From positions 1 through 24,629 of IMG/VR virus record IMGVR_UViG_3300010381_000016: a stretch of DNA of 24,629 nucleotides, one strand, 5' to 3'. The notes under the pieces are model-generated. The model saw nothing but the letters and a program-made list of their open reading frames with translations. It ran no database searches and was not told where the DNA came from. This document shows, in pieces, positions 1,387 through 18,490 of the stretch; position 1 is the first letter of the stretch; each line of letters opens with the position of its first letter. A program made the position numbers and the translations under genes. Source of the stretch: a virus (taxonomy: Duplodnaviria; Caudoviricetes).

Positions 1387-1605
1387 ATGGGTGACAATTA
1401 CAGGAGATCAGAGACAACACATACATCGTACCGGCTGCCACCGGCCACAAAATTCAAGCTTGAGCAGCTATCGGATTATTACGGTTCGACTCGTACCGAA
1501 ACGCTGAAACGCTTGATAAATGAGCATTACACGGCAAAGCAAGCCGAAATAAAAGAATTTTGCAATCTGCGGGATAATGAGAAAAAGGCAGATAAACGAA
1601 GCTAA
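1387..1605 (+). CDS. Ribbon-helix-helix (CopG-like) DNA-binding protein
   Basis: THTSYRLPPATKFKLEQLSDYYGSTRTETLKRLI fits strand-helix-Gx[ST]-helix pattern; AGGAGG SD. Confidence 0.7.
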   Translation: MGDNYRRSETTHTSYRLPPATKFKLEQLSDYYGSTRTETLKRLINEHYTAKQAEIKEFCNLRDNEKKADKRS

Positions 1606-1629
1606 CCGAATGATAATTTGAGCTAATCG

Positions 1630-1657
1630 CCGCTAATCGATTTTTAGCGGTTTTTTT
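1630..1657 (+). terminator. Intrinsic terminator
   Basis: CCGCTAA-7 nt loop-TTAGCGG followed by T7. Confidence 0.8.
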
Positions 1658-1662
1658 GCACC

Positions 1663-1691
1663 TTGAAGCGTGTTTCGTTTGGATGTATCAT
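1663..1691 (+). promoter_or_regulatory. Sigma-A-like promoter of the ribozyme-punctuated operon
   Basis: TTGAAG(1663-1668)-17 bp-TATCAT(1686-1691), directly after the terminator and upstream of an SD/ATG. Confidence 0.6.
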
Positions 1692-1734
1692 AAAACTATC
1701 GAAAGCGCAACACACATTGAAGGGAGATACAAAA

Positions 1735-1911
1735 ATGAATAAATCTCAAATGTCCAATCACATCAAGTCGACTTACAACGGTTTAATGCAGAAAATCTTA
1801 TTAGCTCAGCTTGATTACTTAAAAAGTGGCAAATCGTACAAATTTCACTTTGACGGTATAAGCTACAGATTAACGAACAATAAAGGAATATTTGAAATAA
1901 TCGAGGCGTAA
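1735..1911 (+). CDS. Hypothetical protein, 58 aa (cassette ORF1)
   Basis: AGGGAG SD then ATG at 1735; the track's TTG start at 1663 is the -35 box. Confidence 0.75.
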   Translation: MNKSQMSNHIKSTYNGLMQKILLAQLDYLKSGKSYKFHFDGISYRLTNNKGIFEIIEA

Positions 1912-1918
1912 TGCCTCA

Positions 1919-1969
1919 CCGTAATGCGGATATTCCGGTTCCAATCCCGGAGGCAGGCGCAGAGGACGG
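1919..1969 (+). ncRNA. Twister ribozyme, type P1
   Basis: P1 CCG/CGG; U^AA 1922-1924; P2 UGCG/CGCA; P4 UUCCGG/CCGGAG; 8-nt L4 UUCCAAUC; pseudoknots UCC(1940-42)/GGA(1964-66) and GA(1929-30)/UC(1945-46); conserved GA 1962-63. Confidence 0.88.
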
Positions 1970-1982
1970 AGAACCTTGACAA
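1970..1982 (+). promoter_or_regulatory. BoxA-like antitermination motif
   Basis: AGAACCTTGACAA, identical to the 13-mer at 22050-22062 (- strand); no -10 box follows the embedded TTGACA. Confidence 0.5.
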
Positions 1983-1987
1983 CCTAA

Positions 1988-2069
1988 CAGCAATCCCCGA
2001 TGAACCTGCATTGCAGGATATACGGCGAAGCGCATAGCGCAGAATAGCCGGAGCGATAAGGGAAAACTG
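1988..2069 (+). ncRNA. Unassigned multi-stem RNA element
   Basis: Nested pairings CAG/CUG and UCCC/GGGA enclosing CCUGC/GCAGG and CGGC-GCGC/GCGC-GCCG arms; no ORF with SD. Confidence 0.5.
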
Positions 2070-2106
2070 GTCTGCACGTAGCGAAAATATAAAGGAGTGT
2101 TGAACA

Positions 2107-2430
2107 ATGTCAAGACCAACGGAACAGGAATTAAAAGCATATGCTGAAATGAAGGCAGAAACCATAATAATTAGGACATGGGATGGAAAGGAGTACGAGA
2201 GCAACAGCAGTGATGACCGGCGGGACACTACACCGGAAGAAAAGAAAATCATTGAATCTGTTATTTTCGGAGGGCTTCTGGCGATCCGGTCAGGAGCGGA
2301 CAAACAAAGCGTAAAACACGCTTGTGAGTACATCGGAAATATTCTAATGGAGGATATCGTCCGCGAAGGGCGAATGAACGGCTATGACAGCATCTACAAC
2401 CCCATCGGCGATTATCCCGAAATGAAATAA
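2107..2430 (+). CDS. Hypothetical acidic protein, 107 aa (cassette ORF2)
   Basis: AAAGGAG SD, ATG start, no recognisable motif. Confidence 0.85.
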   Translation: MSRPTEQELKAYAEMKAETIIIRTWDGKEYESNSSDDRRDTTPEEKKIIESVIFGGLLAIRSGADKQSVKHACEYIGNILMEDIVREGRMNGYDSIYNPIGDYPEMK

Positions 2431-2506
2431 ACTCCACCGGAGGAGTATAAACCGCTTTAGGTCCGGTGCGGTGCAGGAAAGTAGGAGGGCTTCTCCTGCA
2501 TGTAGC
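2431..2506 (+). ncRNA. Pistol ribozyme
   Basis: P1 ACUCC/GGAGU; loop ACCGGA pairs with UCCGGU(2462-67); AUAAA linker; P2 GCU/AGC; UUAGG; conserved GCG 2468-70; P3 GUGCAGGA/UCCUGCAU; G^U at 2502/2503. Confidence 0.92.
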
Positions 2507-2527
2507 AAATTGAAAGGATGTGGATGT

Positions 2528-2728
2528 ATGTACAAATTTAAGTTCAAAGAAAAAAAGACTGGAATTATTTTAAGTCCAACCGATATTGCAAGACTCAATT
2601 TAGCAATTGACCCTATTACCGGACGGGCGGCGGCTTTTTTCGTAGATGATACTGGAAGTAGCGGTAAAGCTAGTAAGTGTCACGCAAACCGAATTACGAC
2701 CGACGATTACGAAATTATTATTGAATAG
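2528..2728 (+). CDS. Hypothetical protein, 66 aa (cassette ORF3)
   Basis: GAAAGGA SD before ATG 2528; the track's longer start lies inside the pistol. Confidence 0.75.
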   Translation: MYKFKFKEKKTGIILSPTDIARLNLAIDPITGRAAAFFVDDTGSSGKASKCHANRITTDDYEIIIE

Positions 2729-2781
2729 TCGAAACCGCCCACTTGCGGCGGTCTGCGTCAGATAGGCGCGCTGATGAGACT
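2727..2781 (+). ncRNA. Hammerhead ribozyme, type II
   Basis: AGUC-GAAA-CCGCC/GGCGG-UC^(2753)-UGCGUC/GGCGCG-CUGAUGA(2771-77)-GACU; complete catalytic core with open stem II. Confidence 0.95.
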
Positions 2782-2798
2782 TGAAAGGATGTGTATAT

Positions 2799-2951
2799 AT
2801 GGAACTAAGCGAAAAAGCATTAAAAATATGCCGTGAAAACTACAAAGCAAGCTGCCACAACTGCCCGATCAGACCGGAATGCGTAAGTCATATAAACAAG
2901 ATGGATGAATGGACAGACAGCATTAACAAAGCAGCGGAAAGGACGTGTTAA
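2799..2951 (+). CDS. Small Cys-rich hypothetical protein, 50 aa (cassette ORF4, not in ORF track)
   Basis: MELSEKALKICRENYKASCHNCPIRPECVSH...; GAAAGGA SD; C..CxxCPxxxxC possible metal site. Confidence 0.75.
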   Translation: MELSEKALKICRENYKASCHNCPIRPECVSHINKMDEWTDSINKAAERTC

Positions 2952-2957
2952 GAAATA

Positions 2958-3014
2958 GCAGATGGGTCCGGCTCCGGCCGGATTAATGCACAGCCTGAGT
3001 CCAAAGTCTCGGGC
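2958..3014 (+). ncRNA. Twister ribozyme, type P5 (circular permutation)
   Basis: GCA-GA-UGG; P1 GUCCGGC/GCCGGAU; U^AA 2984-86; P2 UGC/GCA (only 3 bp); P4 GCCUGAG/CUCGGGC; L4 UCCAAAGU; pseudoknots CCA/UGG and AC/GU. Confidence 0.78.
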
Positions 3015-3029
3015 AGAAGGGAGAATAAA

Positions 3030-3557
3030 ATGGCAACAGCATTAAAACTCACAAAGAAGCAGGAAGAAATGCTTTATTTACTCAGATTGGACGGTCTAAG
3101 ACGTGAAATTGAATGGCGCGAAGCCGAAGAAGCCTATAAAAAGGCACAGGCGATTGAAAAAGCCGTCAGCCAGTACGTAGTTGACAACAACGTATATTAC
3201 ATCAGCCAACTAGAACATGATATGCCGGAAACGAAGAACGGTGATCGGGTAACAGATGAATTTGATATGTGTCTGGTGGACGAGGAAATTTTCAAGAATG
3301 ATTTTCTGCCGAAAGTCAAAGCTGTATACATGGAGCTTTACGGTATCGACAACCCGCTAAACTTTGTTTACTCGCATCCGATGTTTGAGCGTAAATTGAA
3401 AGCTGAAAAAGCCTATCACATGATAGCAGTTGACTTTCTGAAAATATCCGGCCGGCCGGAAGCTGTACAGCTTGAAAAGGCCGTAAATAGCTACCTAAGT
3501 CCAAAGATTAAAGAACGGTTAGTAGCTATAACAAAAAGCTTTATAGATGGCAAATAG
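3030..3557 (+). CDS. Hypothetical protein, 175 aa (cassette ORF5)
   Basis: AAGGGAG SD, long ORF, no recognised motif. Confidence 0.88.
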   Translation: MATALKLTKKQEEMLYLLRLDGLRREIEWREAEEAYKKAQAIEKAVSQYVVDNNVYYISQLEHDMPETKNGDRVTDEFDMCLVDEEIFKNDFLPKVKAVYMELYGIDNPLNFVYSHPMFERKLKAEKAYHMIAVDFLKISGRPEAVQLEKAVNSYLSPKIKERLVAITKSFIDGK

Positions 3558-3567
3558 AACGTAGCAA

Positions 3568-3592
3568 GCCGAGTCGGGCGGCATATCCCGGC
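3568..3592 (+). ncRNA. Compact H-type pseudoknot upstream of SD
   Basis: GCCG(3568-71)/CGGC(3579-82) crossed by GUCGGG(3573-78)/CCCGGC(3587-92). Confidence 0.65.
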
Positions 3593-3608
3593 AGATTGGA
3601 GGAAAGTT

Positions 3609-3800
3609 ATGGTATACATCACCTATGGTAATTTTAAAAAAATTGACCTAGAAAAGCTAGAAACTGTCTGCGAAAAGTACGGTGCAAGGATTGAACACAA
3701 AACGAAACGGATTTTTTATGAGCCATCTAAGGTAAACGGCAAGGAATTTTACAGAGAGCTTGACGAGTGTGCAAGCGGAGGCGGCTTTTACGGTGATTGA
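3609..3800 (+). CDS. Hypothetical protein, 63 aa (cassette ORF6)
   Basis: GGAGG SD, ATG. Confidence 0.8.
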   Translation: MVYITYGNFKKIDLEKLETVCEKYGARIEHKTKRIFYEPSKVNGKEFYRELDECASGGGFYGD

Positions 3801-3807
3801 TTTATTT

Positions 3808-3835
3808 TACCGCCGCCCGTCCGGTATAGGCGGGC
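3808..3835 (+). ncRNA. Compact H-type pseudoknot upstream of SD
   Basis: ACCG(3809-12)/CGGU(3822-25) crossed by GCCCGUC(3815-21)/GGCGGGC(3829-35). Confidence 0.65.
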
Positions 3836-3850
3836 AGATTGGAGGATAAC

Positions 3851-4027
3851 ATGACCGATAAATTATACAAGTGTTGCAATACTTGCGCGCACAAAGACAA
3901 TAGCTTATATGGATGCAGTAAGGCATCGGAATGCTACAACGGATTTAGCGCATATAGTCCAAACACTGACATACAGGAACAAGAGGAAGCCGCTCTCCAT
4001 ATAGTGAGCAGAAAGGAACGCATATGA
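3851..4027 (+). CDS. Small Cys-rich hypothetical protein, 58 aa (cassette ORF7)
   Basis: GGAGG SD then ATG 3851; CCNTC...C...C. Confidence 0.75.
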   Translation: MTDKLYKCCNTCAHKDNSLYGCSKASECYNGFSAYSPNTDIQEQEEAALHIVSRKERI

Positions 4028-4119
4028 GCAGAAAATATCTTATCCGCCTTATCCGCATGTACTGTAACGCATCCCCTATCGGCAGGAGCAGGAACGCCGA
4101 GCACGTTTCGCCCGGATAA
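4024..4119 (+). CDS. Possible 31 aa peptide (cassette ORF8)
   Basis: GAAAGGA SD, ATGA overlap with ORF7; MSRKYLIRLIRMYCNASPIGRSRNAEHVSPG. Confidence 0.45.
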   Translation: MSRKYLIRLIRMYCNASPIGRSRNAEHVSPG

Positions 4120-4185
4120 TGGCGGCGAATAAAAGTATTATGACAAAATAATCAGGGTGGCGGCCTGCGCCGGAGGGAATGAAAG

Positions 4186-4353
4186 ATGCAAAACAATGTC
4201 ATGCTGTACAAGAAACAGATCATCAGTTTGATCGAACAAATTCAAGATTGCTTGAAATACGAAAAGACAATCCCAATACCTGGGAGTTATGCGGATGAAT
4301 TTTTAAAAGCCGCAAACGAGTACAACAAGGCAATAAGAGAGCAAACTAAATAA
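4186..4353 (+). CDS. Hypothetical helical protein, 55 aa (cassette ORF9, not in ORF track)
   Basis: GGAGGG SD; MQNNVMLYKKQIISLIEQIQDCLKYEK...AIREQTK. Confidence 0.7.
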   Translation: MQNNVMLYKKQIISLIEQIQDCLKYEKTIPIPGSYADEFLKAANEYNKAIREQTK

Positions 4354-4416
4354 GTCCCGAGGTTCTCGCCTGGTAAAATTCCAGGGCGGCAGAAATGCCG
4401 TAACGCTTATAGACTT
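4352..4416 (+). ncRNA. Twister-sister-like ribozyme (variant lacking P3)
   Basis: P1 AAGUC/GACUU; internal loop CCGAG opposite GCUU^AUA; P2 GUU/AAC; P4 CCUGG/CCAGG with 7-nt loop UAAAAUU; P5 GCGGC/GCCGU. Loop 4 deviates from the usual UGCAAGU. Confidence 0.58.
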
Positions 4417-4436
4417 TGGAAAAGGGGATTGATATT

Positions 4437-4706
4437 ATGTCTAAAAGTTATATTGAAAAATATGGAATGGATATGGTTAAAAAGCATTTGCGCAATCGGC
4501 ATAATGGCAGATATTTTAAGGTTCATGGCGATTATTGTAATATCGGAATTGTTATTTTTAATGAAAACCTTTTCAAGTCCGATATTGATTTATTTAACTT
4601 CCCAATCGTTAAAACAAACCAAAACGGCTGGAATTTGTCAAAGGCTCCGACACCAGAAGAGTTTGAGGTAATTTATAATTATTTAAAGCAGGAGGTCACA
4701 AAATGA
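4437..4706 (+). CDS. Hypothetical protein, 89 aa (cassette ORF10)
   Basis: AAGGGG SD before ATG 4437; ATGA overlap with resolvase. Confidence 0.8.
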   Translation: MSKSYIEKYGMDMVKKHLRNRHNGRYFKVHGDYCNIGIVIFNENLFKSDIDLFNFPIVKTNQNGWNLSKAPTPEEFEVIYNYLKQEVTK

Positions 4707-5281
4707 ATTATAGCTATGAACGTGTCTCCACATTGCATCAGGACGAGCGCAGGCAGGAAATCAGCCTGGAACACATCAAAATAGACAGACGGTACATTGA
4801 CAAACGAACCGGCAAAAACGCAGACAGGCCGCAGCTGAAGCAGCTTATTGCGGATGTAAAAGCGGGCGATCATGTGTACTGCGAGAGCATCAGCCGATTA
4901 GGCAGGAACGTCGACGATCTGCGCCGATTGACGGAGCAATTTGTCTCAATGGGTGTCACTGTCCATTTTGTGAAGGAAGGCATCGACACATCCGGCAGCA
5001 CGTACAAATTTCTACTTACCATCCTGGGCGCGGTTGCTGAAATGGAGCGAGAAGTCACTGTTGACCGTGTCAGGGAAGGTGTAGAAAAAGCTATGCGATT
5101 CGGCACAAAGACAGGCAGACCGTTTGGCAGACCTGAACCGGAATTGCCAGATACATTCCCGAAATACTACGCCAAAATGCGGGCTGGAGAGATTACAAAA
5201 GTTGAAATGTCACGCTTGCTCAAAGTCGGGCGCAGTACGGTTTATCGGTGGATAAATCTGCATGAGAAAAGCCGGAGATAA
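4703..5281 (+). CDS. Small serine recombinase (resolvase/invertase family)
   Basis: YERVSTLHQ catalytic motif, RPQL, ISRLGRN, GRP hinge and C-terminal HTH (VGRSTVYRW). Confidence 0.95.
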   Translation: MNYSYERVSTLHQDERRQEISLEHIKIDRRYIDKRTGKNADRPQLKQLIADVKAGDHVYCESISRLGRNVDDLRRLTEQFVSMGVTVHFVKEGIDTSGSTYKFLLTILGAVAEMEREVTVDRVREGVEKAMRFGTKTGRPFGRPEPELPDTFPKYYAKMRAGEITKVEMSRLLKVGRSTVYRWINLHEKSRR

Positions 5282-5297
5282 TCCGGCTTATTTTTTT
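5267..5297 (+). terminator. Intrinsic, probably bidirectional terminator closing the cassette
   Basis: AAGCCGG(5269-75)/CCGGCTT(5283-89) followed by T7, between convergent genes. Confidence 0.8.
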
Positions 5298-18407: not shown

Positions 18408-18490
18408 TGGTGGAGAAGGCCGGTATCGAACCGACATTTCATGTTTTACCATGGCAACATGCGTGTTTGCCCTATTGTCACCACTTCCCC
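18408..18490 (-). tRNA. tRNA-like gene with enlarged anticodon loop (isotype undetermined)
   Basis: Acceptor GGGGAAG/CUUCUCC-A-CCA; D arm GUG/CAC; T arm GUCGG-UUCGAUA-CCGGC; anticodon stem CAUGU/ACAUG closes 12 nt instead of 7. Confidence 0.8.

Follow-up and report, generated by a model that had tools for sequence, protein, structure and literature searches.

Why phages fill operons with self-cleaving ribozymes is an open question, and the non-cleaving structures of such settings are described as having no known function (PMC6765202). One such case is a 24,629-nt stretch of a Caudoviricetes virus (IMG/VR record IMGVR_UViG_3300010381_000016), here called the window, in which most genes lie on the minus strand and a plus-strand cassette (1387–5289) comprises a small regulator, a terminator, a promoter, ten short ORFs, a resolvase, and a closing terminator. 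Between a twister ribozyme and the second ORF of this cassette, an initial annotation had placed a three-way junction (1988–2069) of no recognized class, for which it offered three options: a new ribozyme, an antitermination element partnering a boxA, or a small RNA. What is this RNA, and what might it do in a ribozyme-bearing operon?

The cassette begins with a gene for a small CopG/ribbon-helix-helix-like regulator (1387–1605, plus strand), which lies upstream of the cassette promoter, has weak PHROGs matches to repressors and homologues in L128, L259, and L308, and is closed by an intrinsic-terminator-like hairpin (1629–1651, plus). A sigma-A-type promoter (TTGAAG-17-TATCAT, 1663–1691, plus) marks the predicted start of the cassette transcript, and a TATCAT or TATGAT −10 box is also found ahead of the homologous leaders. 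ORF1 (58 aa, 1735–1911, plus), without a homologue in 12 related loci, is inserted together with its type-P1 twister (1918–1970, plus; predicted cut 1922^1923) between the promoter and a boxA, and a different ORF plus twister occupies the matching place in L259. Soon after the promoter, half a boxA (ACATTGA, 1713–1720) is fused to the Shine-Dalgarno sequence of ORF1, which suggests that ORF1 and its twister entered at the boxA. Downstream of the junction and a short conserved tail lie the Shine-Dalgarno sequence (AAAGGAG, 2091–2097, plus) of ORF2 and ORF2 itself (107 aa, 2107–2430, plus; one relative found), which appears to be exchangeable cargo between the tail and a pistol ribozyme (2431–2507, plus; enzyme strand 2431–2478, own substrate 2495–2506, predicted cut 2502^2503). 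Rfam further places hammerhead II (2727–2786), twister-P5 (2957–3011), and a RAGATH-36-like RNA (4366–4467) in plus-strand cassette gaps, and a resolvase gene (PF00239) with a terminal terminator (5269–5289) ends the cassette (4703–5289, plus). Twister-P5 is the only Rfam ribozyme match in the cassette above its gathering score; the type-P1 twister reaches 29.1 bits (RF03160, E 0.014; gathering score 67.2) and the pistol 31.7 bits (RF02679, E 0.024), slightly below its gathering score of 34.5.

Several other features were seen in these loci. RAGATH-36-like RNAs, all below gathering score, occur near the cassette end in the window (4366–4467, with additional 5′ pairing), L163 (4666–4721), and L225 (379–484). 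A small pseudoknot-like motif that ends in CAGA before a Shine-Dalgarno sequence recurs in the window (3563–3600 and 3810–3845) and in L163 (3550–3585); with apparent compensatory changes and no Rfam match, it is a candidate further ribozyme or motif. An intergenic stretch of the window (4105–4190) looks structured, is without an Rfam match and folds no better than its shuffles, and the minus strand at 18408–18490 resembles a tRNA or tmRNA 3′ end with CCA (Rfam tmRNA match weak). Near-perfect antisense promoters directly upstream of the resolvase are aimed back into the cassette in L122 (5989–5962, minus) and L128 (5902–5874, minus). Cassette cargo elsewhere includes DUF932 and RadC/JAB genes (L121 3900–4844; L163 3063–3542), which are typical early genes of mobile elements.

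The RNA at 1988–2069 is a real three-armed structure and a new motif. P1 (1988–1997/2060–2069) leads through J1/2 (1998–2004) into P2 (2005–2017), J2/3 (2018–2022) follows, and the third arm consists of P3 (2023–2026/2047–2050), an internal loop (2027–2029/2041–2046), and P4 (2030–2040) with an AUA loop, before J3/1 (2051–2059) returns to P1; the linkers listed in the initial annotation (CGAUGAA, GAA/AGAAUA, and GAGCGAUAA) were all located where it had put them. Taken singly, 1988–2069 folds modestly (−22.8 kcal/mol, z −2.06, with 7 of 200 shuffles equally good), and its reverse strand is comparable (z −2.22). An alignment was built from 10 distinct phage sequences that are 66–95% identical, leaving out exact duplicates, L163 and L236 (core the same as in L122), L261 (identical to L259), and the contigs of X3–X6. 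In this alignment 93.6% of 249 cells are paired and 11 of the 26 pairs have changed on both sides, such compensatory changes being spread over all four helices; none of 500 shuffles reaches this level (the shuffle ignores relatedness), and slid partners pair in 28–42%. P3 pairs take three different Watson-Crick states across homologues, RNAalifold recovers the identical fold unaided, and no variation is seen in 19 of the 36 unpaired columns, which take in AUA of J2/3, GAGC of J3/1, and the greater part of the internal loop. The three-way junction originally described therefore stands, with the covariation among homologues expected of it. In the window copy the closing helix P1 is weak, its pair probability being about 0.35 in a 156-nt piece and below 0.1 in longer transcripts.

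G-U wobbles outnumber A-C mismatches 6 to 1, which favours the plus strand, and a minus-strand RNA was rejected on this ground. A coding explanation was rejected, as a 156-aa minus-strand ORF has no counterpart over L121 3067–3191. An 11/12 antisense promoter at 2113–2086 was discarded because it uses the first codons of ORF2, which vary in homologues; a K-turn at P1 fails since the G-A neighbours are not conserved (an alignment judged by eye), and GGAG as a Shine-Dalgarno sequence lacks a conserved start. The initial boundaries fit the junction and are too narrow for the conserved feature, which also takes in the boxA (1971–1987) and the tail (2070–2083). In one contig of depth 3 (X3), the distal arm is swapped for another hairpin, so the core looks to be the junction and not the AUA-capped arm; since every core collection pattern demanded the distal arm, variants of this kind were missed.

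Searches for relatives returned few. With the resolvase as bait, 42 loci were collected; an nhmmer search recovered the element from 3 of 43 loci (E ~1e-12), pattern scans added more, and four further partial homologues came from landfill, wastewater, and unlabelled runs. One RNA run, from the possible source sample, contained a contig that is a 40-kb whole phage. Direct similarity search found none in phages (chance matches only, E 2–6) and none in plasmids, none of the listed matches to a loose pattern (119 loci in all) is a homologue, a second pattern gave 0, and a GTDB pattern scan gave 12 loci with no homologue. A core-only pattern that did not require boxA was more productive: all 6 viral matches are true, as are 11 of the 49 from metagenomes; the other 38 metagenome matches were dropped as chance, having neither pairing nor boxA. 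Conversely, 26 of the 32 loci found in a boxA-only viral scan were without the element. The combined boxA and junction pattern occurred in 0 of 401 genomes, and model R1, run over 151 class and 151 family genomes, gave three weak matches, of which L271 looks like chance, L272 is a 16S-leader boxA, and L330 is a boxA plus an unrelated stem. In L330 (1501–1600) this boxA precedes a long stem-loop (z −2.96) and itself follows a terminator-like hairpin. Each phage record searched whole with model R1 holds one copy of the element. Element and boxA are jointly absent from four related phage records and from 22 of 23 loci with the neighbouring metallopeptidase gene, and 14 of those metallopeptidase loci, scanned with Rfam, have no ribozyme either. 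G156, a related and complete ribozyme-array phage whose genes are separated by twisters, lacks boxA and element alike; not every ribozyme array thus depends on the leader. The family is rare.

Nor does the junction fall into a catalogued family: no Rfam 15 family matches 1988–2069 at E ≤ 1 in the window or in 13 loci, RAGATH families included. RAGATH motifs are non-cleaving RNAs, located by name near twister and hammerhead genes, and the element shares this genomic setting, with a RAGATH-36-like RNA in the same cassette. Neither a boxA-linked junction within ribozyme arrays nor a gene-split pistol turned up in the literature searched; an earlier unnamed prediction may exist in the alignment sets of PMC10690425 and PMC5737381, and those supplements of PMC10690425 that were searched contain no match to the element. 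The junction is an uncatalogued RNA, a new motif without an Rfam family, which would function like a nut or rrn leader if the mechanism proposed below is right.

The 17-nt boxA (GAACCUUGACAAC core, 1971–1987, plus; a predicted NusB-S10 site) abuts P1 on its 5′ side with zero gap in all 10 aligned sequences, adjoins every true match of the core-only scans that did not ask for it, and is unpaired in the consensus fold, an adjacency in keeping with the boxA partnership raised as one of the three original options. When a pattern made from the phage copies was run over 61 Clostridia-class genomes, it matched 51 times, against 8 for the reversed control. Thirty boxA loci were retrieved: L279, L280, and L287 lead 16S rRNA genes, L299 lies after rrn spacer tRNAs, and L291 is ahead of a 14-tRNA cluster; most of the 30 are not beside rRNA, and the remainder are other leaders or chance occurrences in coding sequence (18 of the 30 were scanned with Rfam). 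The 16S leaders, like the phage copies, carry CAG after boxA. By these letters the phage boxA is of the rrn type, the same as in Clostridia 16S leaders, and from this match the host is taken to be a Clostridia-class bacterium. Bacillus subtilis NusB binds a boxA-like rrn RNA (PMC13753749); the phage boxA resembles it and is predicted to bind NusB-S10. It lies 16–35 nt after the −10 box in 6 of 10 copies and 100 nt in one, while no promoter was found for another; in two of the 10 (the window and L259) an ORF plus twister sits between promoter and boxA. Three Clostridia genomes (L288, L289, and L298) share an unannotated conserved sequence directly after boxA, without an Rfam match.

We propose, tentatively and with slightly less than even confidence, that the element is the cis-acting structured half of a nut/rrn-like loading site, which would anchor the host Nus complex on RNA polymerase. 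NusB-S10 would bind boxA as it emerges, and a host factor, either NusA or RNA polymerase, would be gripped a second time by the invariant unpaired bases of the junction. The second grip is assigned to a host factor because no conserved phage N-like gene was found: none of 11 cassette proteins is a conserved arginine-rich one (the densest stretch has 4 Arg in 15 aa), and only the regulator and the resolvase are common among the cassette proteins of 12 related loci, many of them partial. With this grip the complex would stay on polymerase once the nascent RNA has been severed by the twister, pistol, and hammerhead ribozymes, and the 3.6-kb cassette would thereby be transcribed fast and with resistance to pausing and to Rho.

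Known systems offer partial parallels. As described in PMC8632103 and PMC10250234, the nut-like site of rrn leaders (boxB-boxA-boxC; NusB-S10, NusA, NusG, SuhB, and S4) is alike in boxA type, near-promoter place, long closing helix, and downstream cut site, whereas the phage element heads a protein-coding cassette, has a three-way junction as its 3′ partner, and is followed by a pistol substrate instead of an RNase III stem. In lambda nut (boxA plus boxB, with N protein) a structured RNA likewise follows boxA immediately, and the site lies close to the front of a phage operon, in some cases behind the first gene (PMC8632103); the phage element differs in having an 82-nt junction where lambda has a single boxB hairpin, and with no N-like protein either, a lambda-type nut was rejected. 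HK022 put, B. subtilis EAR, and conAn2 are cis-acting structured RNAs of mobile elements or long operons proposed to ride polymerase, but put consists of two hairpins in 65 nt, conAn depends on a dedicated protein, none gives an Rfam match here, and the phage element differs from all three in its obligatory boxA and near absence of internal terminators.

Counting for the nut/rrn-like reading are the zero-gap boxA, its identity with 16S leaders, the leader position, the single copy, and the joint absence of element and boxA; against it count G156, without boxA and element, and the location of most of the 30 boxA loci away from rRNA. The need for antitermination is also not obvious, since internal terminator-like sites are nearly absent (on the sense strand, the window, L121, and L128 have such sites at the cassette ends alone, and L122 has a single weak one inside) and G exceeds C on the sense strand (884 vs 687). 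Moreover, boxA alone suffices for rrn complexes (PMC13753749), so precedent leaves the role of the junction unexplained.

The tail adds a second strand to the argument. Ten of 11 loci examined carry CUGCAC-R-U-AGY after the junction, L128 being the exception, and this sequence duplicates the substrate strand found in the cassette pistols, whose cut site shows G, A, or C. The motif has two occurrences in the window, this one (2070–2083, plus; CUGCAC-N-U-AGC, predicted cut G2078^U2079) and the site of the pistol itself at 2496. The predicted cut at 2078 is therefore, on the evidence of the motif, a pistol site and not a property of the junction; the likeness to pistol (RF02679) concerns the tail only, and the substrate here differs in lying upstream of the enzyme half and across a gene. 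Seven loci have a pistol enzyme half 265–886 nt downstream of the tail (396 nt in the window). P3 pairing of 6–10 bp between tail and downstream enzyme is available in all seven, a P2 strand in six, and the two-base junction is also present. PMC6154101 describes the G-U site of pistols as only modestly conserved and two-piece pistols as folding and cutting in vitro.

Whether the tail is used as a substrate is less clear-cut. The upstream tail is the stronger partner of the enzyme in L122, L236, and L255 (−12.4 vs −9.1 kcal/mol; L122 and L236 are near-identical), the two strands are about equal in L261, and the enzyme's own strand is the stronger one in the window and in L121. In L212, where the pistol consists of an enzyme half alone and is fused to a twister, no substrate other than the upstream strand is visible. 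By contrast, L163 and L225 keep the tail with no pistol enzyme found within >2 kb downstream. In the X4 and X5 contigs 185 other letters replace ORF2 between the tail and the same pistol, so cassette exchange may also make use of the tail as a repeat. Double cutting at the tail and pistol sites would excise the ORF, and its ends could be ligated.

Under the nut/rrn-like mechanism, the leader held at the exit channel would place the upstream pistol substrate beside the enzyme half when the latter leaves the polymerase behind the first ORF, a tethered delivery that we liken to the bringing together of leader and trailer in rRNA operons, with a cut at 2078 freeing the leader. In the rrn complex the 5′ site is fixed at the exit channel and the RNA loops out (PMC8632103), which is a precedent for such delivery. 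The preference for the upstream tail in three of seven loci and the missing own strand in one count in its favour; equilibrium tail–enzyme pairing below 1% (computed without pseudoknot or tether), two tails without a pistol, two own-strand preferences, and the tail-less L128 count against it. The fullest version, which we regard as improbable, is that these cassettes mimic an rRNA operon: boxA and junction would tether the leader and deliver substrate to the pistol, the first ORF would be cut out at 2078 and 2502 and its ends could be joined by the same pistol into a circular mRNA, and the junction would be a new RNA anchor sustaining antitermination on a repeatedly severed transcript.

The same cut sites admit a different use of the leader. 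The initial annotation had supposed that cuts at 1922 and 2078 liberate a 156-nt RNA; the length holds, as 1923–2078 is 156 nt, and release is plausible, but the 2078 cut is not made by the junction and would need the enzyme half 396 nt downstream. We consider it unlikely that the element is a small RNA released to act in trans (156 nt here, about 130–145 nt in leader-type copies), for instance as a decoy that draws NusB-S10 from host rRNA operons. Ribozyme sites on both sides (5′ of it a twister in the window and L259 or a hammerhead-like core in an X3 contig, 3′ of it the pistol substrate in 10 of 11 loci) and the self-contained fold given by P1 closure are in keeping with release, but the RNA has no terminator of its own and no variable guide segment in the alignment, the element stays at the operon head, and L128 lacks the 3′ cut site. 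Still less probable is a passive role as 5′ stabilizer or folding scaffold, in which the RNA would shield the end of the transcript and stop boxA and the pistol substrate from pairing: P1 does start directly after boxA and end two bases before the substrate strand in every tail-bearing copy, but a simple hairpin would do as much, and the invariant junction bases are left unexplained.

A new class of self-cleaving ribozyme, perhaps a diverged hammerhead-like fold, has a similarly slight, marginally lower probability and has become the weakest of the three options first offered. Its appeal lies in the four known ribozyme types of the cassette, in the 19 invariant unpaired columns, and in J1/2, which reads CUGAUGA in L212 and CCGAUGA in 6 of 10 sequences. 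A hammerhead core combines CUGANGA with GAAA after stem II, UH before stem I, and a one-base junction. CUGANGA is exact in one of the 10 sequences, with C at position 4 in the rest and G5 absent in three; G12 occurs in one of 10 and U16.1 in none, and J3/1 has 9–11 nt instead of one. The hairpin ribozyme requires N^GUC in loop A together with loop B; the internal loop here reads AGUAUA, AGGAUA, or AGAAUA, never GUC, and no loop B helix pair is present. A pistol enzyme has a P1-loop pseudoknot, GCG before P3, and a P3 strand that pairs with the substrate; as such an enzyme the junction fails too, having no conserved GCG, and P4 changes in the window and L225 are compensated within P4 and not by the tail. 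The failure of these three cores agrees with the initial annotation. Furthermore, the element is single-copy and usually ahead of the first gene, whereas known ribozymes recur between genes; a predicted pistol site already sets the 5′ end of the first ORF, and the distal arm is swapped in one contig. Least probable of all is a ligand- or protein-sensing leader (riboswitch-like or autoregulatory) controlling the cassette, for despite the leader position and a conserved purine-rich junction typical of aptamers, there is no expression platform, neither a terminator nor a Shine-Dalgarno-masking helix downstream, the downstream genes vary between loci without a consistent class, and the predicted cut lies between element and first ORF.

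The nut/rrn-like reading would link a ribozyme operon to the host Nus machinery, and the same locus exposes a natural pistol apparently split across a gene. If the anchoring of the Nus complex proves true, the element would exemplify boxA-linked antitermination by an RNA in a Gram-positive phage without an N protein, and could provide a compact tool for Clostridia.
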